From a virus: 64,000 bases of DNA. The translations under genes were made by a program, and so were the position numbers. The notes under the pieces were generated by a model. The model was given only the letters and a program-made list of their open reading frames with translations, made no database searches and had not been told where the DNA came from. Positions within the stretch are counted from its first letter, which is position 1; every line of letters begins with the position of its first letter. This document shows positions 2,297 through 55,978 of this stretch, piece after piece. The DNA is taken from the IMG/VR virus record IMGVR_UViG_3300007735_000799, positions 55,267 to 119,266 of that record. One strand, 5' to 3'.

Positions 2297-2611
2297 TTAT
2301 CGTTTGGCTGTTTGCCAGTCTGGAACTTGCGGGAGTGATTGGTCAGCAACTGCTTCTTTAGCATTTGCTCCTGCGGCTTTTAGCCACTTTGCAACTGTTT
2401 CTCTGCGTCGTTCCGCATGTAAAGCATTCTCAACTTCCCAAGCAAATTTCTTGTGACGAATTTTCTTTTTGTCTATATCGTCTGTGCCTTCAAAATCTTC
2501 CACATCAAAATCAGCGGGAATCACATCAGCAAAAAATCCAAGACCATAATTGAAAATGGCTGTACTATTGCCTGCGCCTTCTTCCTTGATGTAATTCTTA
2601 AAAGACTTCAT
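2297..2611 (-). CDS. Candidate internal head protein
   Basis: N-terminus MKSFKNYIKEE resembles the T4 capsid-targeting sequence. Confidence 0.55.
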   Translation of the reverse strand: MKSFKNYIKEEGAGNSTAIFNYGLGFFADVIPADFDVEDFEGTDDIDKKKIRHKKFAWEVENALHAERRRETVAKWLKAAGANAKEAVADQSLPQVPDWQTAKR

Positions 2612-5563: not shown

Positions 5564-6196
5564 ATGCCTCTAAAGGAGCGTACCATGAACTCGGATTTTA
5601 ACTTTCGTACCCCACTAAAAGCAAAGAACAATATCCTATCGGAAGCGTTCAAGCGTATCGGCAAGATTGCCGCAGATAACTTTAGCCCACTCAAGGGTAA
5701 GGGTTCTGAAAACTTGGTGGAGGCGGTTACTCTAGACCCAACAGAACGAGAGATTTTTCTGTATACCGTGAACCATCATGGCATCTATCGCAGTCGCATC
5801 ACCCCAATTATTGACAACTATAAAAAGAAGATCAGCGGTGGTAAGTTTGATCGTAACCTTGCAACCAAAGGATTCACCTACGCTGTTGAAGACGGCATCA
5901 AGGAATACAACAAAGAGAACGGAACCACAATCAAAATGAATCCTGCCTCGCGCATGCGCGTGGCTGAAAAGATGCTTGAGTATTACGGCGAAGAGATTGG
6001 CATGTCTGCTCGTAATGTATCGGTACACAAAGAAGAAGTGGCAGACGAAATTAAACTATCAGAAGTGTCGCCACCAGCAGGTGCTGCTCGCAGATTCTCC
6101 AAGAAGCCAGAAGTTAAAGCCTCTTTCAAGAAGCGTTACGGAGATCGTTGGAAGGAAGTAATGTACGCCACCGCTTGGAAAATGCACAATAAATGA
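5564..6196 (+). CDS. Candidate internal head protein (multi-module)
   Basis: ILSEA, LVEA and LSEV junctions; C-terminal FKKRYG...VMYATAWK module seen in T4-like phages. Confidence 0.65.
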   Translation: MPLKERTMNSDFNFRTPLKAKNNILSEAFKRIGKIAADNFSPLKGKGSENLVEAVTLDPTEREIFLYTVNHHGIYRSRITPIIDNYKKKISGGKFDRNLATKGFTYAVEDGIKEYNKENGTTIKMNPASRMRVAEKMLEYYGEEIGMSARNVSVHKEEVADEIKLSEVSPPAGAARRFSKKPEVKASFKKRYGDRWKEVMYATAWKMHNK

Positions 6197-6765
6197 AATC
6201 GTTTCGCTCATTCCTAACCGAAGCACCTGATTGCGCCGAACAATCCAAATTTATTTGGAAGGGTGCGGTTAAATCTGTTGCTGTATGCAATTTCAAGGAT
6301 GGGGTTGTATGGAAGGGAGCAACACAATCGGTTCCTCTTTTTAACATCAAGGGTGGTGTAATGTGGGAGGGTGTGCTGCAAGCCAAGGCTATCGGCAACT
6401 TCAAAGAAGGAATTCTTTGGGAAGGCATGGTTCAAGAAAAAGCCTTGTGCAACATTCGTGAAAATACCGTATGGCAAGGTATGCTTCAAGCCAAGGCAAT
6501 TTGTAATTTTGGAACTGCTGATGTTCCTGATGCCAAACCGGTATGCAATCAAGAAACCGTATTCGTATGGCGAGAGATGGTTAAGAGTGAAGCCATTCTT
6601 AACTTTAATATGAAAATGAGTAATCACACTAAACTTGCGATTGCATACACCTTTGTTATGAAGAATTCTTCTCCTAAAGTAAATAAAAAAACAGCCTCGG
6701 GGGATAAGCCCAAGGCTGTTAAAATCACACCAAAACCAAATAAGGTTCAGGCGTCCAAAGCGTAA
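6193..6765 (+). CDS. Beta-repeat protein with capsid-targeting-like N-terminus
   Basis: MKSFRSFLTEA followed by about five 18-aa repeats with G-x-x-W-x-G cores. Confidence 0.65.
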   Translation: MKSFRSFLTEAPDCAEQSKFIWKGAVKSVAVCNFKDGVVWKGATQSVPLFNIKGGVMWEGVLQAKAIGNFKEGILWEGMVQEKALCNIRENTVWQGMLQAKAICNFGTADVPDAKPVCNQETVFVWREMVKSEAILNFNMKMSNHTKLAIAYTFVMKNSSPKVNKKTASGDKPKAVKITPKPNKVQASKA

Positions 6766-8315: not shown

Positions 8316-8648
8316 TTACTTGATGGGGTATGTGAACGGAACGGTCTGACCAGGCGTGAAAGACTGGTCGTTGCGAATCTCGGTCATCTCGGAACGATAC
8401 TCACCACACTGCTTGGTGACATAGTGTTGCCACAGTTTGCGACCCTCTTCTAAACTACCTTTCCAATTGCTGAGAATCTTGCCAGGCTTGCCGTTGGCAT
8501 CGTTGTGACGCACCAACACGCGGCACGGAACAACTAATTTGTTGAATTGAGTTTTCTTGTGAATCACGAACTGCACCCACTCATGCTTGGCAACGCCGTT
8601 GTAGTTGTCTTGGATAAGCAACCAATAATGAATAACTTCCCATCCCAT
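8316..8648 (-). CDS. Small protein, W-x-x-L-x-x-x-G helix family
   Basis: Start MGWEV (TAATG coupling); LEEGRKLWQHYVTKQCG. Confidence 0.6.
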   Translation of the reverse strand: MGWEVIHYWLLIQDNYNGVAKHEWVQFVIHKKTQFNKLVVPCRVLVRHNDANGKPGKILSNWKGSLEEGRKLWQHYVTKQCGEYRSEMTEIRNDQSFTPGQTVPFTYPIK

Positions 8649-8977
8649 TAGACGGTCTCCTCCAACCATTCTGCGGCAGCGATAAGCCCCGCAGCAAGTT
8701 CACGAATCTTGGCAGGGTCATTCATTTCCACGCCAACAGTTTCGTTGTCGTAGCCATCGTTGAACCATGCGTCAACAGACACACGGCGAGCACCAGTCTT
8801 GCCGAAAGTCCGTGAATACCACGGGAACACGGCAATCCCTGAACGGTCTGCTGCATCACGAACACTCACAGACTTCGGAGCAGTAGCCATCGCCGCGTCC
8901 TCAATCTTCTGCATTTTTTCTGCCTTCTTCTGCAACTTGGTTTTCAGAGTCGGCTTCTTGGTCTTTTTGGTCTTCAT
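8648..8977 (-). CDS. Hypothetical protein with Lys-rich N-terminus
   Basis: Start MKTKKTKK follows the duplicated junction sequence. Confidence 0.6.
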   Translation of the reverse strand: MKTKKTKKPTLKTKLQKKAEKMQKIEDAAMATAPKSVSVRDAADRSGIAVFPWYSRTFGKTGARRVSVDAWFNDGYDNETVGVEMNDPAKIRELAAGLIAAAEWLEETV

Positions 8978-8983
8978 GTTTGC

Positions 8984-9025
8984 TTTCAGTAAAAGTTTGG
9001 ATAGTTCGGGTTTGATTCCACGAAC
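8984..9025. repeat. Direct repeat copy 1 (about 42 bp; second copy at about 9524-9565)
   Basis: ctttcagtaaaagtttggatagttcgggtttgattccacgaac is present twice. Confidence 0.95.
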
Positions 9026-9102
9026 TGTACCCACTCAAACTTGGCAACGCCGTGGTAGTTGTCGTGGATACGCAACCAGTAGTGAGTGACTTCCCATCCC
9101 AT
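8986..9102 (-). CDS. Chimeric 38-aa mini-ORF (N-terminus of 8316..8648 fused to C-terminus of 9526..9756)
   Basis: MGWEVTHYWLRIHDNYHGVAKFEWVQFV-ESNPNYPNFY, translated by hand; TAATG coupling. Confidence 0.6.
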   Translation of the reverse strand: MGWEVTHYWLRIHDNYHGVAKFEWVQFVESNPNYPNFY

Positions 9103-9512
9103 TAGACGATCTCCACCATCCTGGTGTAGATGCTGTTGATGCGGAACGGACTGCTGGCGAAGTTCTTGAGAACGGCAGTCATCTCCGACTTGCTGCCCTC
9201 AAACCCGAAGTCACGCAGACCCGTCATCAGGCAAGTACCGCTTCCCATGAGCAGACGATCAATCGTCCCCTCACCCATGCGATCCTCCACCCAATCAATC
9301 GGATCGTTCATGTCTTGCGTGTTGTTCAGCGTGAAGGTGATGTTCACACGGTACTGCGGCTCGTGCGTGAAGATGTTGCTGCACAGAGCGTTGTTCACCT
9401 TGCGAGTGTTGATGTCAGCCGTGACAGCCTGTGGACTGCGTGGTTTGTTGGTGGGAACGGTGGTCTTGGCCTTGCGAGAACGATTGGTGTTGTTGCGAGT
9501 CTTGGTCTTCAT
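9102..9512 (-). CDS. Hypothetical protein
   Basis: 136-aa ORF with AAGGAA RBS. Confidence 0.6.
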   Translation of the reverse strand: MKTKTRNNTNRSRKAKTTVPTNKPRSPQAVTADINTRKVNNALCSNIFTHEPQYRVNITFTLNNTQDMNDPIDWVEDRMGEGTIDRLLMGSGTCLMTGLRDFGFEGSKSEMTAVLKNFASSPFRINSIYTRMVEIV

Positions 9513-9525
9513 GGTCAGTTTCCTT

Positions 9526-9756
9526 TCAGTAAAAGTTTGGATAGTTCGGGTTTGATTCCACGAACAGAGTGTTGAGAATTTGAATCACCCGAAACATTCG
9601 GGCAGATTCATCAGCAGGTTCATCCGCGTAATACGCAGAGATTGCTCTTACCACGGTTTGACGCAACCGCAGAATCTCGCTGCCTGCTGCTTTAGACAGG
9701 TCATCGTTTCTGCGGAACAGGTCATCCACGATATCGTGTTTGAACGGTTGAGGCAT
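9526..9756 (-). CDS. Hypothetical protein
   Basis: 76-aa ORF coupled (TAATG) to upstream gene. Confidence 0.55.
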   Translation of the reverse strand: MPQPFKHDIVDDLFRRNDDLSKAAGSEILRLRQTVVRAISAYYADEPADESARMFRVIQILNTLFVESNPNYPNFY

Positions 9757-10670
9757 TACACATTCCTGCTGCCCAAACGAACGCTCACCCCAAGATAGTC
9801 CATAGTGTTCTGATTACACTGAAGACTCGGGTGAGCCGTGGGGAAATCCCACTGCGGCATGGCATCCACGAACGCAGAATAAACCCCCGTGGAGTGTTCC
9901 GTGGCAACCTCGTCAACCTTGCTAGCGTCCTGCTTCAGACGCTCCAAAGTCTGCATGTCGGAATCGCTTGGCACATACTCCAAGTTGTGTGGCGACACAA
10001 AGCCCACATCCGTGAACTTGCCATCAGGACCACGCTTGTCACTCCAAGCCAACCCGTAGGAATTACCGAAGCGAGTGCGACCCTCCCAAAACAGAACGCC
10101 AGTCTTGCCCTTCGGATACTTGCGTCCTGCGATCACTTGCCACTTGGAACCCTTGACAGGCTTCGGGTGAACCGTCTTCTCCCACTGGTCACGCAGATTG
10201 GCAAGGTAGCGTACCTTCACGGTAGCCTCGGCGTTCTTCGCCTGCCACTTCGCCCAAGTATTACGCCACCAAATCTGAAAAGCGATTCGCTCCTTCATGG
10301 GAGCATCAACGCGGAACTTGGTGTAGAACTTGCTGTCTCCACGCATCGCCACATACACAGTCTCGTGGCTCTGCACACGCTTGCACAGATACTCATGCTC
10401 CATGCCCTTGGCAACGGCATCGGTGTTCTCGTTGCGGAACCAAGCGTAGAGGCTTGCGAAAGGCGTGATGCTGTCATCCGCGTAAACATGCTCGCGGGAA
10501 ATTTCGTCCGTCAGGGCAACAATCTTGCCCGTGAGGTTGGTGAAGAACTCCTGAGCCTCGGTGTTCCACCCGTGCAACTTCGCGGCTTCGGGATTGTCCG
10601 AATGGAAGAAAATGGGCGTGATGACGCGCTCGGAAGCGAGGGTAACGGTGTTGGTTGTGGTCGCAGACAT
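9756..10670 (-). CDS. Putative early protein with KOW/SH3-like segment
   Basis: KGSKWQVIAGRKYPKGKTGVLFW; first gene after a strong promoter. Confidence 0.65.
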   Translation of the reverse strand: MSATTTNTVTLASERVITPIFFHSDNPEAAKLHGWNTEAQEFFTNLTGKIVALTDEISREHVYADDSITPFASLYAWFRNENTDAVAKGMEHEYLCKRVQSHETVYVAMRGDSKFYTKFRVDAPMKERIAFQIWWRNTWAKWQAKNAEATVKVRYLANLRDQWEKTVHPKPVKGSKWQVIAGRKYPKGKTGVLFWEGRTRFGNSYGLAWSDKRGPDGKFTDVGFVSPHNLEYVPSDSDMQTLERLKQDASKVDEVATEHSTGVYSAFVDAMPQWDFPTAHPSLQCNQNTMDYLGVSVRLGSRNV

Positions 10671-10676
10671 ACCCTA

Positions 10677-10705
10677 ATTCTACCCGAAAAACGGGGGCCT
10701 GTCAA
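10677..10705 (-). promoter_or_regulatory. sigma70-type promoter, leaderless
   Basis: TTGACA-17-TAGAAT-6 nt-ATG(10670). Confidence 0.85.
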
Positions 10706-10888
10706 CCTGTAGGGCCGCCGAATCCTCATTTTTTATTATCGGACTATACCCCTAAAAGGGCCGGTTTCCTGCGGTGTTTTAGGGGTCATTGGGGAGGCTA
10801 GAATGCCCCAGGAGGCATCCCCGCAGTCGGCCCCGCCCGTTACCCCCAGAACGGGACCACCTCCCCAATGGGCCCTATATTATCGGAC

Positions 10889-12151
10889 TCACCATCTGTA
10901 GGTTAGTTCGGTGGGTTCCAGGTTCAAGTAGCGGAAGAATGAGCCTACGCCGCGACTCAACAAATTTGCAATAAATGAAATTACCTTTTTGATGGCTTCA
11001 AGCAATTTCTTAAATCCATCTTTAATGTATTGATAACCTTTCATGCCTGCCTTGGTCATACTCTTGCCTGCTGTGGTTAGCCAATCACCCAAGCCTTCGT
11101 TGAGTTCATTGTAATAGTAGTTGTATCTTTCGGTTAATTCTTTTTCTGAGAATACCGTTTCATCCAAATCCTCGTCTTCCAATTTTGAATCGCCTGCCTT
11201 TTGAGCGTAGTCAATGCGAGCAGCGATACCACGAGAACCACCGCCACTCTTGCTGCTCTTGCGACCACGATCACGAAGACTAAACTTAAAGTTGGGAAGA
11301 GTCTTTGTAATAAATTCGTTTGCGTCCATGAACTTAATGGTTCCGTTTTCAAACCATTCAAGGAAGTGTGTAGCAATAAAGTCTTCATTCAAGAAACGCT
11401 TTTCGCCTGTGGCAAACTCTCGCAGAAGTTTCTTGCGATTGTTGGTGTCAATCATAAAGCGACTCATCTCTATAGTCAACTTTTCACGAATTCCTATAAT
11501 GCCTAGAAACTCGTTCATCTGCTTTATTTCTTCCTTTGAAGGAACGCCTGCGCCACTCTTGAATCCTGTGACACGACTGAGTAGTTGGTCAAATCCGTCT
11601 ACCCCGTATTCGTTTTCAAACTTCTTGCGTGTAGCCTTGTAAACAGTTTCGTTTCCTGATTCTGTAATAATGCGAGCAATGGTTTGTGTGAGTTTTGATC
11701 CTTCGCTACTGTTTTTAAATGTGGCGTTTAGAACCGCGTAGATTTCATTTGTTTGTGCGGAAGCAACCTGAAATGCTGTGCCGTTCTTGATGGAGCAACG
11801 AAACTTTTTGCCACCCACCATAAACACCGCATCTGTTTTTGGTTCACCACTCTTGATGCTTCTGCCTTCTCCACCTTCAGTATACGCAGGAGCAATCACG
11901 GACGGTGGGGCTTTGCCTGCCATGCGATACGCAAGACGAGGCTTACCACCTAGTTTAGGAAGCAGGGCTTTAATGCACGACTTTGCTGTTTCTTGTGCGT
12001 ACTTGTTTTGATACTTTAAAGATTCACCGCGAGCCTTACCTTCAGTTGAAACTTCATTGAAAGCCTTAACCAAATCAATCTCAAACTGTGTAGAGTTGAT
12101 GGTTCCTTCGGTTAAAAACTTTGTATGAATAAACGAGGTAAACTTGTTCAT
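10889..12151 (-). CDS. PD-(D/E)xK restriction-endonuclease-like protein, candidate internal head protein
   Basis: GEPKTDAVF...RCSIKNG motif; N-terminus ...KFLTE-G; ATAAATA 5 nt upstream of ATG 12151. Confidence 0.6.
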   Translation of the reverse strand: MNKFTSFIHTKFLTEGTINSTQFEIDLVKAFNEVSTEGKARGESLKYQNKYAQETAKSCIKALLPKLGGKPRLAYRMAGKAPPSVIAPAYTEGGEGRSIKSGEPKTDAVFMVGGKKFRCSIKNGTAFQVASAQTNEIYAVLNATFKNSSEGSKLTQTIARIITESGNETVYKATRKKFENEYGVDGFDQLLSRVTGFKSGAGVPSKEEIKQMNEFLGIIGIREKLTIEMSRFMIDTNNRKKLLREFATGEKRFLNEDFIATHFLEWFENGTIKFMDANEFITKTLPNFKFSLRDRGRKSSKSGGGSRGIAARIDYAQKAGDSKLEDEDLDETVFSEKELTERYNYYYNELNEGLGDWLTTAGKSMTKAGMKGYQYIKDGFKKLLEAIKKVISFIANLLSRGVGSFFRYLNLEPTELTYRW

Positions 12152-12185
12152 GTGAGTATTTATTCTTTCCATATGATCGTCACTA

Positions 12186-13124
12186 TTAAACTGGCAAAAC
12201 TTTAAATGCCTTTTTTGCTATATCAGGACTTGAGAAATATTTGCTGAAGTGTCGCATGAATATTTCTTCATCCTCTTTCTTCCAATCCCAAACGGTTGTG
12301 CGGTTATTTCCTTCAGCCCATTCCGGATCTTCTCCGTATCCTCCTGGTATATTCTGCATCATGGCAACAAATGCTCGCACAGGAATATAAACTTTACAAC
12401 GAAGCGGAGAATTGCTTAAACGAATCACTTCTTCTTCATCACTAATACTTCCCATTACAGCATTCAAAAACGCGCTGCTTGAGTAACGGTTAAACAGAGT
12501 TTCTTGTTTGGTTAGATGTGCTTCCATGATTGCCATAACTCTAGACTTATTGGTTCGGTCTCGCACAAACCTTGAGGATGTTTTAGCAAATGTTTCTGCA
12601 ATGCTAAATGTATATGTCCACGATTGTCCTTCATATCTAGACTTGTAAGTTATATCTGTTATTAGATAATTGCCGCCGCCAACAAACGCAACATTATCAA
12701 ACTTCACATTCTTGAAGTCATCTAATCCCAAGGTAGTTCCGCGATACGCTAAACCATCAAACCAACTCCACGAAGCACGGGACGGACAGGCAATCAAAGA
12801 TTTCAATCCTCGCTTCATTGTGTTCATTTCACTTTGTGAAATATCTGCGTCTACTCCTAGTTTAAAATGCTCTCCAATATTTACTGCCGTCATCCAAATT
12901 TCTTTTGTTATGTCTGGCGCACCATCAGCAAACTTTTTGCGATACTCGTCGTATGCAGTTTTTATTTTATCTGTTTCAATCATATTGTAATCGTAACGAA
13001 CAGTTTCAAATCTTTCATAACAGAAATACACCAACTCTTTTAAAGCGTTGTGATGGGGCTGACGAATCCACCAGCAGATGCCTTCGTTTGTGCTTTCTTG
13101 AAGATAGTCTGAGAAGTCTTTCAT
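12186..13124 (-). CDS. ADP-ribosyltransferase paralog 1 (R-S-ExE)
   Basis: AYRG, YKSRYEGQSWT...AETF, DEEEVIR; N-terminus MKDFSDYLQES. Confidence 0.75.
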   Translation of the reverse strand: MKDFSDYLQESTNEGICWWIRQPHHNALKELVYFCYERFETVRYDYNMIETDKIKTAYDEYRKKFADGAPDITKEIWMTAVNIGEHFKLGVDADISQSEMNTMKRGLKSLIACPSRASWSWFDGLAYRGTTLGLDDFKNVKFDNVAFVGGGNYLITDITYKSRYEGQSWTYTFSIAETFAKTSSRFVRDRTNKSRVMAIMEAHLTKQETLFNRYSSSAFLNAVMGSISDEEEVIRLSNSPLRCKVYIPVRAFVAMMQNIPGGYGEDPEWAEGNNRTTVWDWKKEDEEIFMRHFSKYFSSPDIAKKAFKVLPV

Positions 13125-14410
13125 ACGCGATACTGCCTCCTAGCAATCTTCTCAAACTCTTTCCATACAGGTTGTGTAGTCATCTTTTTTACTGCGTCTT
13201 CGCCTGCAATCTTGGCAAGACGCTGTTGGAAATTTTTCAGGTCATCTGTGGTGGCATTACCTAGTTCTGCGTGTGCCAATTCACCCCAAATGCTTGGTAG
13301 ATTAACATACCCACGAACTGTTATTGGAGTGTTGCTTACACGAAGCACTTCTTGCTCATCAGGATGCACAGACACTTGACGAATCACATCAGGCATTAGG
13401 AAAGTTTCTTGGCGTTTAATAACATGCTCTATTATTAGAGCAACTGTATCGTATGAATTTCCTGGCCCAATGTTTGTGAAATTGTCGGCTACTTCGAAAC
13501 CGTAAGCCCAAGATTGTGCAGGATACTTAGACTTGTAGTTTCCTGCACACACCAAATATTTTCTGCCTTGTATTTCTACAACCTCACCTGTGAATCGGAA
13601 ATTCTGTCTCAGATAACCAGTAGACTTTCGTAATCCTCGCCAAACTTTTTTGTTGTCAAACGAGTAAGTCCAGTTTGCACGATTAGGACACTTTGACATT
13701 TTAACTATTAACGCATCAGAACCATACTTTTCTTCGCCTGATTTATCAAAGTAATCGCATACAGCACGAGTATACTGTAACAGTTCGCTGTCTAACGATG
13801 AATACTTATACTTGGAATTTTTTTTGTCAACTGCTTTAACCCAATTCACAAACTCTTTTTCATTTGGTTGAGACAGCAGTTCGCAAATAGTTGGTTCGGT
13901 TTCAGTTTCTGCGGCTTCGGTTAACTTCATGTAAGGCGTCAAGTCAAGCATAATTACTTTTGGCGTGATGCCGTTCATAAACGCAATGTCCATTCGGGTG
14001 TTGCCTGCCAACACTCGCATTTCGCCTTTAGGAAACTTCACCACGATAGGCATGTCTACCGGCTTGCCTGCTTTTATAAGTTTCTCTAGTTCTTTAAGTG
14101 TGTCTTCGTTTCTAAACTTTGGAAACGAACGATATCCTGAGATAAGGTTAAGCAACTGCTCCATGTTTTTAGTGCGACTACGATTATCAATATTGCGGTC
14201 AACCGCAGCAGATACCTCAACCACAGGAGCGGCTTTTACGGCTTTCACAAATGCCGCTTCGGTTGGAAAAATGTTTCTAGGCAGTTCGTGAATCAGATGT
14301 TTCAGATACTCAATCTGATACTCTTTGCGAATACTAGCATCGCTTGGGCGAACCCAATTGCCTGCTTTCGCTTCAGATAATGTTTCACGCAATTGCCAAT
14401 AGTCTTTCAT
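13121..14410 (-). CDS. ParB/Srx-like domain fused to ADP-ribosyltransferase paralog 2
   Basis: MPIVV...LAGNTRM (ParB/Srx-like); linker KLTEAA; VWRG, YKSKYPAQSWA, DEQEVLR. Confidence 0.72.
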   Translation of the reverse strand: MKDYWQLRETLSEAKAGNWVRPSDASIRKEYQIEYLKHLIHELPRNIFPTEAAFVKAVKAAPVVEVSAAVDRNIDNRSRTKNMEQLLNLISGYRSFPKFRNEDTLKELEKLIKAGKPVDMPIVVKFPKGEMRVLAGNTRMDIAFMNGITPKVIMLDLTPYMKLTEAAETETEPTICELLSQPNEKEFVNWVKAVDKKNSKYKYSSLDSELLQYTRAVCDYFDKSGEEKYGSDALIVKMSKCPNRANWTYSFDNKKVWRGLRKSTGYLRQNFRFTGEVVEIQGRKYLVCAGNYKSKYPAQSWAYGFEVADNFTNIGPGNSYDTVALIIEHVIKRQETFLMPDVIRQVSVHPDEQEVLRVSNTPITVRGYVNLPSIWGELAHAELGNATTDDLKNFQQRLAKIAGEDAVKKMTTQPVWKEFEKIARRQYRV

Positions 14411-15516
14411 TTTTTCTTACCTAGAAGAGTCTTGTAGATATACTCTACCACTGAGTCCTCGTGACGAACTGCTCCTCGGAGAGATTCCTTGGTGATAATA
14501 AACTTTGCTTTAATCGGAGCGTTAGACACACGAATCACTTCTCTTTCATACACTCCTAATCCTGCCGTTTCCCCTATTTTTTTTGAGGATTGTGCGTTAA
14601 GTATACATTCTTGCTTAGGAACTGCTGCGGAAACCACAACAGGAATCCAACCAGATATCTTTGTAGAACCAACTGAAGGAAGATCTCCTCCTGAGATTCC
14701 TGAGATGTGTATATTGCCTTCAACCGAACCGCTAGCATTTGCATCGCCTATAGTTGAATTTCTTGCAAATGTTTTGGCTACACTAATGTTTGTTGTCCAA
14801 GATTGTGCTCCAAGTCTACTCTGATAAATTCCTTCAGCGTGTAGTTCAGAACCCACTTGTTTCCATTTCATTTGCTTGGCTTTATCCCAAGGAATAGTTT
14901 TTCCACGAGATAATGTGCCACTAAAATTTGGTATTGTCCAATTGGCTCGTGTTGGACAATCTCGTATTGCTTTGAAAACTTCTAGAACTGAACTTTTTCC
15001 GCGACCCATTAAATTTGATCCAAACCAATCTTTAAACGCATCATTAAGTTTTAAGACTACAGCCTCAAATTTACTCCATCCGTTCAACTTCCAGTCTTGT
15101 AAGAAATACTTGGTGTTTTCGCCCCACTCCGCGTCTATAACCATAGCATCTTTCCACGGAAATCCTGAACGCACATAAGCCATTTCATCATAAGGCAAAC
15201 TTATAATATCACACATGGTGACATTAGAGAAATCAGGAAATCCATCTTTATCCTTTTTTCCTTTGGTTATCTTTAAGAATAATTTATTGTCGTAGGAATC
15301 AAGTTTATAATCCTTGAGTTTAGGAGAATCATCATCCTTGTCTTTATAACTAGAACTAGATTTCTTTGGTGTCTTGGAACTTGAACTAGATTGCTTTGTT
15401 GTTGTTGTCTTAAAATACTTAGGATTGGGTAAACCTAAAGCAGTAAAATATCCATTTACACTGTCCTCTTTAACGACAGCCTTTAAATCTTTTCTTAGTT
15501 GCCAATAGTCTTTCAC
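14407..15516 (-). CDS. ADP-ribosyltransferase paralog 3
   Basis: LSRG, YQSRLGAQSWTT...AKTF, YEREVIR. Confidence 0.72.
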   Translation of the reverse strand: MKDYWQLRKDLKAVVKEDSVNGYFTALGLPNPKYFKTTTTKQSSSSSKTPKKSSSSYKDKDDDSPKLKDYKLDSYDNKLFLKITKGKKDKDGFPDFSNVTMCDIISLPYDEMAYVRSGFPWKDAMVIDAEWGENTKYFLQDWKLNGWSKFEAVVLKLNDAFKDWFGSNLMGRGKSSVLEVFKAIRDCPTRANWTIPNFSGTLSRGKTIPWDKAKQMKWKQVGSELHAEGIYQSRLGAQSWTTNISVAKTFARNSTIGDANASGSVEGNIHISGISGGDLPSVGSTKISGWIPVVVSAAVPKQECILNAQSSKKIGETAGLGVYEREVIRVSNAPIKAKFIITKESLRGAVRHEDSVVEYIYKTLLGKKK

Positions 15517-15518
15517 AT

Positions 15519-16463
15519 TTACTTTCTTTTACTAATGATATTAAAGATGTGGTCGGTCTGTTCACCGTTAATGGTTACAGAATCCAACATTTGTCGTGTA
15601 ACGAAGAACTTTGCTTTAATTGGTTCGGTGGAAACGCGAAGCACTTCCTTCTCGTTTAATCCGCCCATGTCTATAGCAGTTTGAATCTTATCAAGCGTGT
15701 TTGGATTAAACAAACAATCTTTTGCAGGAATTACTGCTTGAATAATTACAGGAAGAAATCCTGTTATATTTTTTCCGTATACTTCTTTGTCTGCTCTATC
15801 ATCCCACCGTTCAGGAATTTCTAAATCTAAACCACTCATAGCACCTTCGTGTCCTGATGCAAAACTTCTTGCTGTAATCAGGTCTGTTGTCCATGATTGC
15901 ATAGCCAGTTTACTTTGATAGGTTGCGGTGCATTCTAGTTTACTGCCCCCGCTAGAAACCCGCCACGGCATTTGCTTGAATTGTTTCCAAGAAATTCTCT
16001 TGCCGCGATACAGAGTTCCACCTGCGAATCTTGCCCAATCACCTCGGGTTGAACACGATTTAATGTTACGGAAAACATGCACAACTTCCGACTTGCCACT
16101 ACCCATGAGTTCGTCACCAAACGCTTGTCCAAACACTTCGCGTATCTTATCTAACATTCCATCAAAAGTATACCATCCACGAACCTTGTAACCCGACATA
16201 ATAAAATCATCACTTTGACGAGAAAAAAATCCAGAACCAACATGACGAAGCAAATATCGGAAATCATCAGTATTCAACGAAACTATATCACAAAGGGTTA
16301 CTCCGGTTAAATCAGGAACGCCATTTTCGTCTCGTTTGCCTTTGTTGATCTTCAGAAGTAGTTTTTCATCTGTTGGATTGAATCCTGGAATATCATAATC
16401 ACTTTTCAGAGTTTTCTTCTGAGCAGCGGTTAAGTCTTCTAGTAGTTGCCAGTAGTTTTTCAT
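15519..16463 (-). CDS. ADP-ribosyltransferase paralog 4
   Basis: LYRG, YQSKLAMQSWTT...ARSF, NEKEVLR. Confidence 0.75.
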   Translation of the reverse strand: MKNYWQLLEDLTAAQKKTLKSDYDIPGFNPTDEKLLLKINKGKRDENGVPDLTGVTLCDIVSLNTDDFRYLLRHVGSGFFSRQSDDFIMSGYKVRGWYTFDGMLDKIREVFGQAFGDELMGSGKSEVVHVFRNIKSCSTRGDWARFAGGTLYRGKRISWKQFKQMPWRVSSGGSKLECTATYQSKLAMQSWTTDLITARSFASGHEGAMSGLDLEIPERWDDRADKEVYGKNITGFLPVIIQAVIPAKDCLFNPNTLDKIQTAIDMGGLNEKEVLRVSTEPIKAKFFVTRQMLDSVTINGEQTDHIFNIISKRK

Positions 16464-17236
16464 TTAAGTAAGAAACTTTCCGCTTCTGAACCTCTGTCAA
16501 TATAATGATGCTTTTCTTTTCCTGATGGGGTTATCTCAAGTATGGTAACACTAGTTTTATCTCCCATTACGGATAGAATCTCACGAACCGCTGCTTTAAA
16601 CGCTGCCATGTTTGTGCCTTCTAGACTGCAACTTGCTGATTCAGCACCGTAAACTTTCAACCAGCCTTTATCAAACGCTCGCTTGGCTAGCGGTGGACAA
16701 AGGTCTATGATTTCCCGTTTAATCATTTCTTTAATGCCCGAGGCTTCTATCTTTTCGCCTTTTTCAAGACCTATGGTTCTCTCGTAGTAATCACGCGACC
16801 TTGGATCTAAACCGCCGCTGTTTAATCTCTGTTTTTGAATATACTCATTCAATGCTTGATCCATTTCACTATCAGTAACACCAAACCTCTGAGGATTTTT
16901 CACCACCTGAGTGATGTGATACCCGTCTCCGAGATGTGAAAAAGTGAACGGAGGTTTTACTGCGTGCCACCAGCCTGCACACTCTCGCTTCCACGGAAAC
17001 GGTGGACGATTCAACCCAGACTTTTGTTGCTGTTGAATCTTTTTGAGTGCATTCGCATCACGACGCTGTGCTGCTGCAATAAGTGCTTGACCGCGTGGAC
17101 TTCGTTCAAACTTTAAACGCAACTCACGCTCGCGGGGAGTTTCGTAGTGTCCTCCCTTTGGTTCAAATGCGTTAGGATTAGTGTAGATACCAAGTGCTTC
17201 AGTTAACTCGGATAATAATTGAGATAAGGTTTTCAT
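16460..17236 (-). CDS. Candidate internal head protein
   Basis: Start MKTLSQLLSELTEA; GWW...YH...KGWLKV pattern. Confidence 0.6.
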   Translation of the reverse strand: MKTLSQLLSELTEALGIYTNPNAFEPKGGHYETPRERELRLKFERSPRGQALIAAAQRRDANALKKIQQQQKSGLNRPPFPWKRECAGWWHAVKPPFTFSHLGDGYHITQVVKNPQRFGVTDSEMDQALNEYIQKQRLNSGGLDPRSRDYYERTIGLEKGEKIEASGIKEMIKREIIDLCPPLAKRAFDKGWLKVYGAESASCSLEGTNMAAFKAAVREILSVMGDKTSVTILEITPSGKEKHHYIDRGSEAESFLLK

Positions 17237-17240
17237 AGGT

Positions 17241-17744
17241 TTAGTCCCACAACATATCTTCGCCACGATCTAGTAGAATTCGGCGAGAGGCTTTGTCTAA
17301 TACTTGCAATCCTGTGCCAGCGGCTTTCAGTTCCACTTCTTTGCCAGACATGCTTAGGTAAGTTTCGCGTCCTAACTTCATGGCTTTCTTGACGAACATG
17401 GAACGAGGCTTGCCGTCACGCTCGCGTCCCATGATTTCAATTTTAATGTTTACCGGCTTGATGCTCAAGGTTAAAATCATATCCTTGGCGTTATCAATAG
17501 CAGCCCGGGTCATTTGCCGAGTAGTGGACCACGCCTTTTTGTTTGGCTTGGGAATTACATTTCCCATTGCGTCAGTCTTTCTAGCCTTTAAAGGATTCTG
17601 AGATCCTACAAAGCGTTGCGGATCGTCTAGATTAACTCCGTAACCAATGGTTCCTAAACTTGGGCCTTTGGGAAACTTTGGCTTCTCGGCAAGCAAGCCT
17701 AAAACCGCTTCCGCGTTTTCTAAAATCTCTCGGTAATCGCGCAT
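17241..17744 (-). CDS. Candidate internal head protein
   Basis: MRDYREILENAEA N-terminus; lies within the payload operon. Confidence 0.55.
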   Translation of the reverse strand: MRDYREILENAEAVLGLLAEKPKFPKGPSLGTIGYGVNLDDPQRFVGSQNPLKARKTDAMGNVIPKPNKKAWSTTRQMTRAAIDNAKDMILTLSIKPVNIKIEIMGRERDGKPRSMFVKKAMKLGRETYLSMSGKEVELKAAGTGLQVLDKASRRILLDRGEDMLWD

Positions 17745-17767
17745 ACGCCGTATCCTCCTGAATTCAA

Positions 17768-18487
17768 TTATTTAGGCTTTGTAGTAAACGGGGACGCTTC
17801 ACCCCACCAAGCCAAGGTGCAGTTCGCCATTTCAGGTCGGGGAGAAGGCATTGGATACAGTTTCGCTCCCATGCTACCGGCTAATCGCTTGGCTATGGTA
17901 TTGTAGATTACCGCACGAACCGGTCGAGCGTTCGGCTTTGTGCCCCAAAAGATGCCTTCAGGGTTTTTTTTCTGTTTAAAATCTTTCACAATTTCAATAA
18001 TGGTTCCAAACACTCGGGTGACATGAGCGGTATCCGTTCCGCCTAAATCATCGTCTGTGCCTTGGTCAAAGCCGGAGCCGTTTGTGTCTACATAAGTGCC
18101 GAAGCCTAGTTCCCACATAGACTCAAACACCGGCAAAGCGATTTTAGGTCTGATTTCCGCTGAGAAATTTGCTCTGGCTAAACCACGATTGATTCTTCGC
18201 ATGCCTTCAAAGGCTGTAGTTCCCCGATGCTGAGTAAAGGTGACTACAACGCGCTGACGCAAGCCGGGATTCTCGGCTCGGTGCTGCGTCATTATGCGAT
18301 CTGTGGTGGCTATGGATCGTGGCACACCTGGCGTGAAGTTTGGGCCAGGATCAGGCTGCCAATCTGTACTGCCTGCGGGTTTTATCACATCAAATCGGTA
18401 ATCGTATGTTGCGCCACCTGAAGTGAAAAGCCGCCACGGATAAGATCGTTCAAAGATTTCTGTGATGTAAGATTCAAAGTATTTCAT
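17768..18487 (-). CDS. Candidate internal head protein (paralog of 40902..41402)
   Basis: MKYFESYITEIFERSYP; VFGTIIEIVKDF...P.GI.W...R..IY. Confidence 0.6.
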   Translation of the reverse strand: MKYFESYITEIFERSYPWRLFTSGGATYDYRFDVIKPAGSTDWQPDPGPNFTPGVPRSIATTDRIMTQHRAENPGLRQRVVVTFTQHRGTTAFEGMRRINRGLARANFSAEIRPKIALPVFESMWELGFGTYVDTNGSGFDQGTDDDLGGTDTAHVTRVFGTIIEIVKDFKQKKNPEGIFWGTKPNARPVRAVIYNTIAKRLAGSMGAKLYPMPSPRPEMANCTLAWWGEASPFTTKPK

Positions 18488-18494
18488 TTGTAGG

Positions 18495-18501
18495 TATTTA
18501 G
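18495..18501 (-). promoter_or_regulatory. T4-like late promoter box
   Basis: CTAAATA 7 nt upstream of ATG 18487, heading the payload operon. Confidence 0.6.
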
Positions 18502-18526
18502 AAAAAACAAACCTCCTTGCGGAGGT
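18502..18526 (-). terminator. Rho-independent terminator
   Basis: ACCUCC-GCAA-GGAGGU followed by UUGUUUUUU. Confidence 0.75.
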
Positions 18527-38815: not shown

Positions 38816-39916
38816 CTATTCGGTAATTTCAGCAGACTCTTTAATTGATTTCATACCAGCAATAATCATTGCTTTTGTTTGCTTATCGTAGGAATTTATG
38901 ATTTCTTTAATTCTTTCAACAGCGTCAGCAGCGTTCATTTTACGAATCTTTGCGTCAATCTCAGCCTGCTTTGGGTCAACAGCCTCTTCAACTTCTTCTT
39001 TCTTAACAGGCTTGCTTGGCTTGCCGGTAATCTTGTAAAGAGTATCACCTTCGCCGTGTTGAACGGAAATCTTGTAGCCTTGCTGGCGAAGAGCGTTCAA
39101 GTCAACCTTGGTTTTCTTTAAAGACTTCCACTCGGCTTCGGTAACAACCTCTTCCTTCTGAATCTTTTCCTTGGTAACAAAGATGCTTGCAGGCTCGCCT
39201 ACATCAACCACATACCCACCGCCGTGCTGCTGTGCCTTGCTTGTGCCACCGTCATCGTAGCGAATAATCCTGCCAGACACCATCTTGCCCTTGTGAGGAA
39301 CCTTTACCTTGTCGCCGTCTTTAAACGCTTCAGCAATCTGAACATCTTCACCCATCATTGAGCCTTTAGGACTCATGCTACGCACAATGTCAACTCCCGA
39401 GAAGCCTAGACCCTTGCCGTAATTGAATCCACCGCTAATTGCACCATCGTAAGCACCGCCAACCTGAACTGAATTGCTTGGAAACTGCTTTCTAACAGCA
39501 TCGTATACACTCTTGCCGAAACGATCTAGCAGTTCTTTGTTGCTGGCAATTATATTGCCAGTATCAACGGTTATGCCTTCAAAACCACCGTGAAACAATC
39601 CTGAAGTGTCTTTAGGCGTCATATACCGAACATCAAAACGACTTTGAGCCACAATCTTGTATTGTTTGCCAGCGTCGTTCAGCACCTTCTTAAAGAAATT
39701 TACAAGTTCAGGTGAAGCACTCTTGCCGTAGACACGAAGCATAAACCCGCTAACCGCAAACTTAACATCACCGTCTTCGTCTGCACTCATGGCTTTCAAG
39801 AGTTCCATGTTGTAGTTAAAAGGTGCAACTGTGCCTAGTTGCTTGGCTTCAGCAATAGGCTGTGGGTTAACAATCTGATTTGCGGCTTCGGCTAGTCTTT
39901 TGGCGGTTCCTGACAT
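38816..39916 (-). CDS. Candidate multi-module internal head/core protein
   Basis: Repeated LAEA, IAEA, IAEA, VTEA, VEEA junctions; SH3/Tudor-like GDKVKVPHKGKMVSG module. Confidence 0.65.
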   Translation of the reverse strand: MSGTAKRLAEAANQIVNPQPIAEAKQLGTVAPFNYNMELLKAMSADEDGDVKFAVSGFMLRVYGKSASPELVNFFKKVLNDAGKQYKIVAQSRFDVRYMTPKDTSGLFHGGFEGITVDTGNIIASNKELLDRFGKSVYDAVRKQFPSNSVQVGGAYDGAISGGFNYGKGLGFSGVDIVRSMSPKGSMMGEDVQIAEAFKDGDKVKVPHKGKMVSGRIIRYDDGGTSKAQQHGGGYVVDVGEPASIFVTKEKIQKEEVVTEAEWKSLKKTKVDLNALRQQGYKISVQHGEGDTLYKITGKPSKPVKKEEVEEAVDPKQAEIDAKIRKMNAADAVERIKEIINSYDKQTKAMIIAGMKSIKESAEITE

Positions 39917-39942: not shown

Positions 39943-40905
39943 TTAGGTGTTTAAGAGTGCTTCCATCGGTATGCCACCTGGAGCATCCGACCCGAAATCG
40001 TATAGGATATAGGTGGCTGTTATAGGTTGAGCGGATATCCGAACTGTTTCTCGCTCACGAGTATTTTTAGTAGACAGTTTCAGAGTCAACTTGATTTTGT
40101 CGCTAGCATCAGGATTAAACAAGAATTCTTTATCGTTGGTGCGATACTCTATGGTTACAGGCAGCACGGTATCTGTCACGGTTGCTCCGGCTCCTGATTT
40201 AATTCCTCGTTTCAACAACTCTACAAACTTGGCTCTTTCTACAGGTTCGTCGCCAGGATACTGTGGTTTATCAAACGGCAAGGCTCCTAGTTTAAGGGCT
40301 TTTTTAATTTGACTTTCCAAGTCTTCAGAACGCATTTTAGCAAACTCTAAAGCCTTTTGATAGTTGTAACTCCAAGACTGTAGGGGATACTGACTTTTGT
40401 ATGGAGCAGTGCAAACCCAAGATTTGCCTTGTTGTTTCCACTTACCTAACTTGTTTAGTTCTGCCAACGACATGGCTTTGCCACGGTATATCAGTTGTCC
40501 TGCTTTAGGCAGCATCCACGATGATTTGTTTTGACAGTTAATCAAGTCACGGAAAAACGGGTACACTTGCTGCTTCTGCTCAGGAGTGGCAGTCATAAGA
40601 CGATCACCAAAAAAGTCTTCTAGGTTTCGTCTAACATTATTGGTGTAATGCAGCAACTGTAGGATTTGAAAATTGTCTATTTGCTTCAACAGTTCATCGG
40701 TATTACCAAACTCAAATAGTCTTGGTGCTCCACGAACTTCACCACCAAAACCTTTCAGCAAGGCTAGAGCATCGTCTAGTGTTAAAGAAGCAAACACGCA
40801 CGGCGAAATAGGCGCACCTGATTTCAAGTATGGAATAACCTTTTCCAACACTCGGTTGGTTTGTGCAACAGACGCGGCTTCGTTGAATACTTGAAAGTCT
40901 TTCAT
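39943..40905 (-). CDS. ADP-ribosyltransferase paralog 5
   Basis: IYRG, YKSQYPLQSWS...ALEF, RERETVR; MKDFQVFNEAA. Confidence 0.72.
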   Translation of the reverse strand: MKDFQVFNEAASVAQTNRVLEKVIPYLKSGAPISPCVFASLTLDDALALLKGFGGEVRGAPRLFEFGNTDELLKQIDNFQILQLLHYTNNVRRNLEDFFGDRLMTATPEQKQQVYPFFRDLINCQNKSSWMLPKAGQLIYRGKAMSLAELNKLGKWKQQGKSWVCTAPYKSQYPLQSWSYNYQKALEFAKMRSEDLESQIKKALKLGALPFDKPQYPGDEPVERAKFVELLKRGIKSGAGATVTDTVLPVTIEYRTNDKEFLFNPDASDKIKLTLKLSTKNTRERETVRISAQPITATYILYDFGSDAPGGIPMEALLNT

Positions 40906-41402
40906 TTCTTTACTATGGTAAACAATTCTCTGGTGTTTGGAAAGTTAATGTTAACTGTAGGCATTTCTTTTCTGCCTTCTAGTTTGTATCCGTGTGCTTC
41001 AGCGTATCGTTTAATCAAAGCCATGTAGAGTTTAACGCGAGAACCACTGGTATACGACAAGGTTGTAGCATTTATCTCACTCTTGGCTGCAATGAAACTT
41101 ATATCTTGCGGCTTATACTTTTGTAGGAATCGTTTGAATCCGTCTAATACTGAAGCAAATACTTGAGCGGCTTTTCCTTCGCCTGTTAAAGCGGTTGAAC
41201 CGTTTCGTGAAAAAGTGCAATCCCATGAATCAGGTGTAGGAGTTGATAGTCGGGCAAAATACACAACAACAAACTGCTCTTTGCCGTTTTCCATCCACTT
41301 GTAAGAATACTTGGCTTCATCCGTTCCTTCTCTTTGCAAATGGATGGGAAACGGTTTGTCAAACAGTTCAGTAAGATGTGTCTTGAATGATTTCACAGCC
41401 AA
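40902..41402 (-). CDS. Candidate internal head protein (paralog of 17768..18487)
   Basis: VKSFKTHLTELFDKPFP; TGEGKAAQVFASV...SRVKLY. Confidence 0.65.
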   Translation of the reverse strand: MAVKSFKTHLTELFDKPFPIHLQREGTDEAKYSYKWMENGKEQFVVVYFARLSTPTPDSWDCTFSRNGSTALTGEGKAAQVFASVLDGFKRFLQKYKPQDISFIAAKSEINATTLSYTSGSRVKLYMALIKRYAEAHGYKLEGRKEMPTVNINFPNTRELFTIVKK

Positions 41403-42301
41403 CTTTGTTTCTTTAATAGGGTTTTGAATTTAGGATGATTTGCAATCTGTTTAGCAGCAGTTGTTCCTAGTATTGTAGCCAATCGCTTTTCCGCATATTC
41501 TGTCACCAGTCTGATTTGTTCTTTTTCTGAATCTATGTTTTCTAGTTTTTTCAGATAGTCTCTGCTCATAGTCTGCATTTCTTGTTCAACAAAATTGTCT
41601 AATTGCACATACATCTTTACTGGCGTTGGAACATTGCTTACTCGTATAATTTCATCTTCGCCGTATGAACCTAAAGTGTTGGAAATCTCGGGCGACAAAA
41701 AAGTGTTTTGTTTAGTTACATTGGTTTCCATAATCACGCCTATGCCACCAGCACTTGAACCGTATTGGTCGGATGTGAAACTCATAGACACTTCAAAATC
41801 TTTAGCCCATGATTGTGCCGCGTATTTGCTTTTGTAAACTCCGTTGGCTACAGCAAAAAATGCATCTTTCTTTTCCACAACCTCGCCTGTGAATTTCAAG
41901 CCTTTAATCCAATCGCGGGACTTGAACAAACCACGATAAACTTTGCCTGAGTAACCTGCCCATGCTGCTTTACCAGAACACGATGCCATCTTTACAATCT
42001 TAGGCATGAACGGTGCTTTTGCCCCACCTTGTGATTCAAACCAAGAATTCATTGCAAAAATGTATTCTATCAATTGCTTGTATGCTGCTTGTTTGTCGGG
42101 AGTAAAAGTTTGATTTAAGGCTTTTGCCATTAACTGATATAGTTTATTGATACTTGTTTTACGAGCATCATAATATCCCTCTGTGCCGTTACCAACAGCA
42201 GTATACAAATCTATAAGACGGTCTGGTGACGAGTCCGACATTAGTTCACAAATGGTGGGAACGCCAGCGGCTTCGGTAAGATGTGTCTTGAATGATTTCA
42301 C
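41393..42301 (-). CDS. ADP-ribosyltransferase paralog 6
   Basis: VYRG, YKSKYAAQSWA...SMSF, GEDEIIR; MKSFKTHLTEAA. Confidence 0.75.
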   Translation of the reverse strand: MKSFKTHLTEAAGVPTICELMSDSSPDRLIDLYTAVGNGTEGYYDARKTSINKLYQLMAKALNQTFTPDKQAAYKQLIEYIFAMNSWFESQGGAKAPFMPKIVKMASCSGKAAWAGYSGKVYRGLFKSRDWIKGLKFTGEVVEKKDAFFAVANGVYKSKYAAQSWAKDFEVSMSFTSDQYGSSAGGIGVIMETNVTKQNTFLSPEISNTLGSYGEDEIIRVSNVPTPVKMYVQLDNFVEQEMQTMSRDYLKKLENIDSEKEQIRLVTEYAEKRLATILGTTAAKQIANHPKFKTLLKKQSWL

Positions 42302-42426
42302 TTGCTCTTTTTCTTTCTGCCTTGGCAGTGTGCTCGCTGTGAAAATCCTTTAGGATTAGAGCAATTGATGCTTTGCTTGTATTTCCGCGACCACTTTTCC
42401 GAGATGTAACGCTTAAATGATTTCAT
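42298..42426 (-). CDS. 42-aa basic Cys/His mini-protein with capsid-targeting-like N-terminus (not in ORF track)
   Basis: MKSFKRYISEKWSRKYKQSINCSNPKGFSQRAHCQGRKKKSK, translated by hand; coupled on both sides. Confidence 0.75.
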   Translation of the reverse strand: MKSFKRYISEKWSRKYKQSINCSNPKGFSQRAHCQGRKKKSK

Positions 42427-42836
42427 ACAGAGGTTGCATTTCTTTTAATTTTGCCGTGTAGTTGACGAGAGAACAAGTTGGAACGATAGTCAAGGGGTTT
42501 GCCTGTTACCTTGTTTCTTAACGCCCAATCTCCTCCTGTGATTCTAGACAGAACAAGGTCTCTAATCTCCACAACATCTCCAACACGAAGTGGAGGTAGT
42601 TCTTCCTGTCGTTCGCTCTTGCCGATATATCCCATCAACATCCAACCCTCACTTGTTTTTATACGAACACGCCATCTCCAAAATTTAGTTTTATTCTTGT
42701 AGTTCTTGGTGGTTGTTTCATACACAGCCACAGCACTCACAACATTTCCGCTAATGTTAAAACGACTGATAAAATACTCACCACGGGGTTTAGGAGCCTC
42801 ATGCTGTTCTGCAAGATGTGTGGTGAATGATTTCAT
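42423..42836 (-). CDS. Candidate internal head protein
   Basis: MKSFTTHLAEQ N-terminus; possible OB-like beta content. Confidence 0.6.
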   Translation of the reverse strand: MKSFTTHLAEQHEAPKPRGEYFISRFNISGNVVSAVAVYETTTKNYKNKTKFWRWRVRIKTSEGWMLMGYIGKSERQEELPPLRVGDVVEIRDLVLSRITGGDWALRNKVTGKPLDYRSNLFSRQLHGKIKRNATSV

Positions 42837-43198: not shown

Positions 43199-43236
43199 TA
43201 TTTAGGAAAAAGAAACAACCCTGTTGCCAGGGTTGT
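43199..43236 (-). terminator. Terminator followed by late promoter box
   Basis: ACAACCCUG-GCAA-CAGGGUUGU followed by U tract, then CTAAATA at 43199-43205. Confidence 0.7.
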
Positions 43237-55976: not shown

Positions 55977-55978
55977 TT

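Follow-up and report, generated by a model that had tools for sequence, protein, structure and literature searches.

What purpose could be served by a phage that starts one protein after another with nearly the same ten residues, including proteins that are unrelated over the rest of their length? The question is raised by a 64-kb stretch of DNA (hereafter the window; bases 55267-119266 of the 119,266-nt IMG/VR virus contig IMGVR_UViG_3300007735_000799), where eight consecutive minus-strand open reading frames (ORFs) at 10889-18487 all begin with a peptide resembling the capsid targeting sequence (CTS) of the phage T4 internal proteins (IPs). Coordinates are in window numbering unless the contig or another genome is named. 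Our analyses make it quite probable that the genes carrying this N-terminal tag encode cargo of the phage head, which would be addressed by a T4-type CTS, released by a protease, and ejected with the DNA. The mechanism itself is known, as it is that of the T4 CTS, with T4 Alt being a precedent for a packaged ADP-ribosyltransferase (ART), and T4-like phages have already been proposed to pack varied proteins via the CTS (PMC9026906). What is new is the degree and the content, namely a distant lineage with about five times the tagged genes of T4 in half a genome, mostly encoding enzymes and including an array of ARTs, together with data from cyanophages in which the tag is predictive of what the virion contains.

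The consensus of the tag, M-[K/R]-x-[F/Y/L]-x-x-hydrophobic-[L/I/V]-x-E, identifies 19 candidates in the window: the eight genes of the first operon, five genes of a second run (39943-42836), and six genes elsewhere. The contig half upstream of the window holds at least three more, for a total of at least 22 in half a genome. A sequence-only reading of this DNA had pointed out the eight ORFs and their N-termini behind a CTAAATA box, the five CTS starts of the second run, and further examples at 2297, 6193, 50196 and 54811-56419, and had estimated roughly 18 candidates, far more than in T4. All of these ORFs are indeed present, and the density is several-fold that of T4; two starts had to be corrected, with gene 3 of the first operon beginning at an internal Met at 17236 (not at the longest-ORF start, 17266) and gene 8 at 12151 (not 12172). 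GTG is the start codon at 14407-15516, 41393-42301, 40902-41396 and 54811-55695. When graded against the register of T4 IPIII, 13 candidates are close, four are moderate (14407, with Asp at position 10; 54811 and 55979, with Glu at 12-13; and 50196, with Glu at 20), and two, 10889 and 55692, are weak. Residue 4 is F or Y in 17 of the 19 and L in the other two, residue 7 is F, Y, H, L or I, and the predicted cleavage-type [L/I/V]-x-E, recognized here from sequence only, has its Glu at 9 or 10 in 13 candidates and at 12-20 in the others, with one Asp at 10. These are the positions known to matter in T4, where the first 10 residues of IPIII are enough to bring a protein into the head, targeting depends on residues 4 and 7 and cleavage on residues 8 and 10, and an Asp at position 10 blocks cleavage while targeting is kept (PMC9026906). 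The same patterns recovered T4 IPII and IPIII as positive controls. The peptide that the earlier reading had quoted as the start of the T4 internal proteins is in fact found in these two, with IPI having a 19-residue version of it (PMC9026906), and [L/I]-x-E sites are also seen near the N-terminus of T4 gp21, gp22, gp24, gp67 and Alt.

Such matches fall at gene starts. As a regular expression, the motif was found 14 times in 35,932 residues of called ORFs, always at or next to a gene start and never internally, and a strict 10-residue pattern matched nine of 3,891 possible starts, all of them plausible gene starts. With a loose definition applied to five genomes, 19 of the 181 ORFs of this contig were tagged (15.9 per 100 kb), compared to 10/201 in G001 and 8/217 in G003 (two near-complete relatives, at 93% and 98%, respectively), 8/282 in T4 (false positives included), and 2/230 in cyanophage S-SM1 (Fisher p=1e-5 for this contig vs S-SM1), which corresponds to a density 3-14 times that of these four genomes. 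Tagged genes are also clustered, with 12 adjacent pairs (permutation p<1e-5) and a longest run of seven (p=4e-5). One could argue that a shared start of this kind is a by-product at the nucleotide level, generated by an A/U-rich initiation region in coupled genes or by a copied recombination cassette, and that the peptide has no function. AAA is indeed the second codon in 15 of the 19 candidates, and the genes at 41393 and 40902 are near-identical in codons 1-10, pointing to a local duplication or conversion. At the conserved residues Ser3, P3 and Phe4, however, varied synonymous codons are used (four Ser codons at residue 3 and ten codons at P3), and because codons vary where residues are conserved, selection acts on the protein rather than on the RNA. 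Furthermore, no conserved non-coding cassette was seen upstream of the coupled genes, and conservation extends to residue 10, beyond the reach of an effect of the initiation region, and coincides with the T4 functional positions. We therefore find an origin at the nucleotide level scarcely credible.

The promoter context of these genes is of a late type. The first operon is preceded by a boundary (18495-18526, minus strand) made of an intrinsic-terminator hairpin at 18511-18526 followed by CTAAATA at 18495-18501, 7 nt before the first ATG, gene 2 has its own CTAAATA at 17769-17775, and the second cassette is transcribed behind the box at 43199-43205. Contig-wide, 16 of 25 CTAAATA boxes are located 0-40 nt upstream of a same-strand gene start, with 0.8 expected (binomial p=1e-18); two of these 16 precede genes 1 and 2, and one is the box at the head of the second cassette. 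The raw number of boxes in the window is not above that of shuffled sequences (15 vs 10.1, sd 3.05), so that only position and strand are significant, and sigma-70-type promoters are not enriched in the first operon. CTAAATA differs by a single base from the T4 late promoter TATAAATA and is taken to be the late promoter of this clade. At the level of sequence, boxes, terminator, and the presence of a gp55 gene all point to late transcription of the tagged genes alongside the head genes. It is also worth reporting that at 18487 and 62613 of the window, and at 2718 of the contig, only 5-7 nt separate the end of a CTAAATA box from the start codon; with transcription beginning a few nucleotides downstream of the box, as it does at T4 late promoters, such late mRNAs would be leaderless or nearly so. 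Gene junctions within the runs are 4-nt overlaps or gaps of a few nucleotides; those that overlap or nearly abut in the first operon are 13124/13121, 14410/14407, 16463/16460 and 17241/17236, with four more in the second run. This geometry fits translational coupling, in line with the earlier description of the eight ORFs as mostly coupled.

The phage itself can be placed by its genes. The window encodes a T4-type gp41 helicase, a gp46/gp47 nuclease and a gp55 late sigma factor (58350-58928), and the nearest cultured relatives of its gp41 are found in Methylophilales phage Melnitz (54% identity) and in T4-like cyanophages (about 50%). Because of these T4-type genes and gp41 relatives, we assign it, by sequence, to the T4-like myoviruses, in a cyanophage-like environmental group. 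No match to cultured phages was obtained by megablast with the first operon or by tblastn with gene 1, and searches of Pfam and PHROGs with the eight proteins of the first operon yielded only phrog_22045 (function unknown), for gene 8.

What would such a phage carry in its head? The predicted cargo includes a set of six paralogues, all on the minus strand: gene 4 (15519-16463, 314 aa, with a tag ending in L-L-E), gene 5 (14407-15516, 369 aa, where Asp at 10 is followed by a V-K-E ending at residue 17), gene 6 (13121-14410, 429 aa), gene 7 (12186-13124, 312 aa, strict CTS) and, in the second run, 41393-42301 (302 aa, strict CTS) and 39943-40905 (320 aa, with a tag in a 9-residue register ending in F-N-E-A). 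R258 (in Y-R-G), S300 (in Q-S-W) and the Glu-x-Glu pair E352/E354 are invariant across the six. In the AF2 model of gene 6, the ART domain has a pLDDT of 80-90; Foldseek placed the Vis ART toxin first (probability 0.99), followed by cholera toxin A1, HopU1 and C3, and with VIA-align (Z 7.4, rmsd 3.8, 146 residues aligned) nearly every row was an ART. These Z values are middling, and the weight of the comparison comes from the uniformity of the match list and from the catalytic motifs. Both motif and predicted fold are those of R-S-E ADP-ribosyltransferases of the cholera-toxin/C3/Alt-like clade, to which we assign the six proteins. No sequence match to the family was found in Pfam or PDB, even when the ART profile was searched against PDB sequences. 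The family is a large one, with 432 clusters at 50% identity (E<=1e-3), and at least 61 of its top 150 representatives bear the tag, with many more near misses.

Other predicted enzymes carry the tag as well. The model of gene 1 (17768-18487, minus strand, 239 aa; strict CTS with F4, Y7, I8 and E10) has a pLDDT of 70.5, and the top 50 among 48,161 representative PDB chains were almost all GNATs (Z 6.3-7.6), so that this protein and its short paralogue at 40902-41396 (minus strand, 164 aa, strict CTS, with the GTG start in a GTGA overlap) appear to be GNAT-like in fold; neither had a Pfam match, and a clear Q/R-x-x-G-x-G/A acyl-CoA motif was not seen in them. The gene at 54811-55695 (minus strand, 294 aa, CTS-like start with Y-L-E ending at residue 12) encodes a Zeta-toxin P-loop kinase according to Pfam (Zeta_toxin, PF06414; 32.5 bits vs a cut-off of 22.3, E=7e-8), with a visible G-x-G-K-G P-loop, and the gene at 50196-50885 (plus strand, 229 aa; F4, H7, L8 and Gln at 10, with a first I-A-E ending at residue 20, like T4 IPI) matches the co-catalytic metallopeptidase structure PDB 3b2y (E=1e-6). 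The N-terminal domain of gene 6 is probably ParB/Srx-like, as a PDB profile search put ParB chains first, at E=0.4, over the P-I-V-V ... A-G-N-T-R block, and ParB_N is present in 63% of the members of a look-alike Atlas cluster (score 0.93), in the absence of a Pfam match. Gene 8 (10889-12151, minus strand, 420 aa; weaker CTS with N2, F4, F7, I8 and an L-T-E ending at residue 15) resembles PD-(D/E)xK restriction-endonuclease-like proteins in its central region and is possibly such a nuclease. The enzymes foreseen by the sequence-only reading were thus recovered for the ARTs, the kinase and the peptidase fold, whereas for the nuclease there are only weak leads.

It could still be that the tagged proteins are packaged and then remain in the head, as core filler or as DNA-condensing or charge-neutralizing components with a role in assembly, rather than acting on the host. 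T4 internal proteins are, in fact, abundant basic DNA-contacting proteins (PMC3012670), ejection in this phage is a step that we infer, and a 42-aa ORF of the second run (42298-42426, minus strand), where a strict CTS is followed by a 32-residue, very basic, Cys-containing peptide, would suit such a role well. Kept in the related loci L005 and L007, this ORF is the nearest analogue here of the small basic internal proteins of T4. Most of the cargo, however, has catalytic folds and intact active sites, as in the six ARTs with R, S and E-x-E, the Zeta kinase and the metallopeptidase match; enzymes of this kind have no obvious substrate inside a capsid, and in T4, both Alt and proteins fused to the CTS do reach the inside of the cell (PMC9026906). 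We consider it unlikely that head-resident proteins account for the set.

With regard to cargo, we also observed, outside the window, a 999-aa protein (contig 9423-12422, minus strand; L064:6424-9423) that combines a RimK ATP-grasp, a Zn_protease (PF05618) and a DUF3140 domain with a weak cytidylyltransferase-like N-terminal domain, and that starts with a variant tag ending in I-T-E-A; its 1201-aa counterpart in G001 has a canonical tag. The N-terminal domain shares the motif G-R-F-N-P-P-T with the NMNAT detected in the virion of cyanophage S-SCSM1. A tagged NAD-synthesis enzyme beside six tagged NAD-consuming ARTs is suggestive.

That the tag is a module, joined to unrelated domains, is illustrated by comparison with other phages. 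The N-terminal domain of gene 6 is 46% identical to p033 of Rhodothermus phage RM378, which starts at the conserved N-W-V block and has no tag, and orthologous ParB-like domains (L004 and L005 among them) bear three different versions of the tag just upstream of that block. Likewise, the central region of gene 8 matches S-SM1 gp188, which is untagged, and the orthologue of gene 8 in L001/L002 has a clearer tag. In gene 6, the ParB-ART junction aligns with the N-terminal tag of stand-alone ARTs and has kept an M-K-L-T-E-A relic, and in L001 and L002 the two halves of the gene are separate CTS genes. Such a junction is what would be left by a deletion between two neighbouring CTS genes, and it puts a protease site where the two domains meet. 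The ART profile led to nine related IMG/VR loci, every one of which has runs of consecutive tagged genes, and the gene 1 family is present in every related cassette that we examined. G001 and G003 have the same cassettes and encode a Peptidase_S77 prohead protease, whose own N-terminus shows tag-like features and [I/L]-x-E sites; at the start of G001 gp23, an I-S-E-A site immediately precedes the conserved N-terminus of the mature protein.

Independent indications on the destination of tagged proteins come from the virions of two T4-like cyanophages. Five S-CREM2 proteins, all non-structural, have a strict CTS, namely the S-adenosylmethionine (SAM) hydrolase gp6, the APH-like kinase gp14, the cytidylyltransferase gp154, and the hypothetical proteins gp13 and gp136, and all five are in the list of 52 virion proteins (PMC10665884, Table 3). 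With the loose pattern, six of eight flagged ORFs were virion-detected, compared to 44 of 222 others (Fisher p=0.0016), the two misses being weak matches. In S-SCSM1, the virion-detected NMNAT-like ORF91 (PMC9602691) starts with a strict tag followed by Ala. When open full text was searched for the CTS term together with "cyanophage", only the review of Black's work (PMC9026906) was found, and neither PMC10665884 nor PMC9602691; Petrov et al. 2010 do not discuss the CTS. The S-CREM2 genes gp12-gp15 (OR473000, 7704-13331) are four consecutive virion-detected genes, for a Cas9-like nuclease, a hypothetical protein, the APH kinase and another hypothetical protein; two have a strict CTS, gp12 has F-M-A-E-A about 25 residues into the protein as annotated, and the version in gp15 is shortened. 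The four make up a cassette of cargo genes similar to those described here.

These virion data are also relevant to the possibility that the shared N-terminus is a protein tag with a use outside the capsid, such as attachment to some other machinery of the phage or the host, export, or regulated proteolysis. The case for packaging in our phage is indirect, and one tagged lysozyme, described below, has a segment after its tag that resembles those of signal-arrest-release (SAR) endolysins. The peptide, on the other hand, has neither a hydrophobic core nor a signal-peptidase site and matches the T4 CTS position by position, the purified virions of S-CREM2 and S-SCSM1 contain tagged proteins, and a related N-terminus is borne by the prohead protease of the relatives. 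A use other than capsid targeting is, in our opinion, improbable.

We acknowledge that several points weigh against our proposal that the tagged proteins are packaged, processed and ejected. Packaging, cleavage and ejection in this phage, as well as the host targets, are what we infer from the data, and that enzymes of 30-110 kDa can pass through the tail is an assumption drawn from experiments with T4 fusion proteins. Genes for gp21, gp22 and gp23 were not found on the contig, which is 52% complete according to CheckV; as gp23 and gp21 are absent from it, the head module should lie in the missing half, and the protease and its specificity are therefore known from relatives only. For the six ARTs, no link to T4 Alt or ModB could be detected by sequence or by profile, with hhalign against these single sequences giving probabilities below 1%. 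The loose pattern has false positives in T4, thymidylate synthase among them, about three of our 19 candidates could be chance matches, and two are weak. The authors of the S-CREM2 study remarked that abundant late proteins could co-purify with virions (PMC10665884). Lastly, a phage lysozyme (PF00959) with a strict CTS-like start is encoded outside the window (contig 8553-9164, minus strand; locus L064:5554-6165), and directly after the tag has a weakly hydrophobic, Ala/Gly/Ser-rich stretch typical of SAR endolysins. Because of that stretch, the enzyme may be destined for export and not for the head; the motif has here picked up either a lysozyme that is packaged or a false positive.

If delivery in the capsid is nonetheless correct, as we favor, events would unfold as follows. 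Each protein would be made with a T4-type CTS of about 10-19 residues, with an aromatic residue at 4, a hydrophobic one at 7 and an [L/I/V]-x-E, from late transcripts initiated at CTAAATA boxes by the gp55-type sigma factor and translated mostly in a coupled manner. The tag would bind the protein to the scaffolding core during prohead assembly, and the gp21-type prohead protease would then cut after Glu, freeing the mature protein inside the head, and would probably also cut relic sites where domains have become fused, for instance at L-T-E-A in the ParB-ART protein. At infection, the proteins would exit with the DNA and act before any phage gene is expressed. The cargo is predicted to consist mainly of enzymes that modify host macromolecules: six ARTs, which would multiply the role of T4 Alt, two GNAT-fold proteins, a Zeta-type kinase and a metallopeptidase-like protein, along with ParB-like and restriction-endonuclease-like domains and the small basic peptide.

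The remaining tagged genes encode hypothetical proteins. In the first operon these are gene 2 (17241-17744, minus strand, 167 aa), with a CTS in the 9-residue register (I-L-E), and gene 3 (16460-17236, minus strand, 258 aa), with Leu at 4 and two L-x-E sites (E10 and E13). The second cassette includes a 137-aa protein with a strict CTS (42423-42836, minus strand). At the head of this cassette lies an untagged gene of the cupin/mannose-6-phosphate isomerase C-terminal type (42833-43180, minus strand; PF01050, 88 bits), and after the cassette a 366-aa gene (38816-39916, minus strand) that has its own CTAAATA box and in which K2 and F4 are missing while L8-A9-E10-A11, corresponding to the processing half of the T4 CTS, is present. 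Strict tags are also present in the single genes at 2297-2611 (minus strand, 104 aa) and 6193-6765 (plus strand, 190 aa, L-T-E-A), the latter encoding an internally repetitive protein that was first aligned with the ARTs and then rejected as not being one. Next to the kinase gene, 55692-55976 (minus strand, 94 aa) has a weak CTS-like start (Ile 2, F4, L7, and L-R-E ending at 13), and 55979-56419 (minus strand, 146 aa, starting at a Met inside a longer ORF) has F4, L7, I8, an L-K-E ending at 13 and a Pro-rich C-terminus.

Among the closest known systems, the similarity to the T4 internal proteins encompasses the 10-19-residue N-terminal peptide with an aromatic residue at 4, a hydrophobic one at 7, an aliphatic one at 8 and Glu at 10, the sharing of the tag alone by unrelated mature proteins, late expression, and a gp21-type protease in the lineage. 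T4 has three small basic internal proteins, whereas the far more numerous tagged genes here encode mostly enzymes of 100-430 aa, in long coupled late operons and in a distant lineage. In T4 itself, we noticed that the 54-aa gp61.1, encoded beside the primase gene (gene 61.1; NC_000866, 18966-19130), starts with a near-perfect CTS-like sequence (K2, F4, F7, I8, E10); we know of no report of its packaging. T4 Alt is likewise an R-S-E ART made late, with an [I/L]-x-E site near its N-terminus where gp21 trims it before it is delivered with the DNA, as we would expect here; Alt, however, is a single protein of 682 aa, whereas the six paralogues are much shorter and each has a canonical IP-type CTS. 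Polyvalent proteins (Iyer et al. 2017, PMC5512222) also bring ART, ParB-like DNase and peptidase domains into the cell with the invading DNA, and both the ParB-ART fusion and the 999-aa NTase-RimK-protease protein qualify as small polyvalent proteins. The difference is that the domains here are mostly on separate genes with their own tags, would be cut at [L/I]-x-E by the prohead protease and not by a zincin peptidase built into the protein, and include ARTs of the R-S-E rather than the H-Y-D type. The ejection proteins of phiKZ-like giant phages such as SPN3US (PMC5694885, PMC7411985) are similarly numerous, internal to the head, cut after Glu by a gp21-related protease, and ejected, with the differences being an S/A/G-x-E logo, long propeptides and no short shared N-terminal address peptide. 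As for S-CREM2 and S-SCSM1, a kinase, a cytidylyltransferase/NMNAT and a SAM hydrolase were detected in their virions and are found here to have the same tag; their genomes have about five tagged genes, not at least 19, and no ART array.

A broader reading, which we hold only tentatively, is that the T4 CTS is a portable address label across a large clade of cyanophage-like and other environmental T4-like phages, with the phage studied here as an extreme case equipped with an NAD-centered first-strike kit, with cargo that is shuffled by recombination at the tag and, once fused, recut at relic tags, and with the tagged ART family as a major unrecognized class of injected host-modifying proteins. 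Such a kit would comprise six diversifying ARTs, a tagged NMNAT-like/RimK polyprotein, and enzymes of the acetyltransferase, kinase, nuclease and peptidase types. If this were true, injected effectors could be read directly from sequence. If the tag works as it does in T4, a 10-residue motif would predict the injected proteins of uncultured T4-like phages, and metagenomic contigs would become a source of candidate first-minute effectors and anti-defence proteins. The recurrence of kinases, NMNAT-like enzymes and SAM hydrolase in cyanophage virion proteomes would then also be explained; the authors of those studies could not separate packaging from contamination. The scale of the phenomenon, with 19 tagged genes in 64 kb that include six for ARTs, and with an ART family that is large, unannotated and mostly tagged, goes well beyond T4 and suggests that pre-loading the capsid with enzymes is a major and evolvable strategy in this clade.

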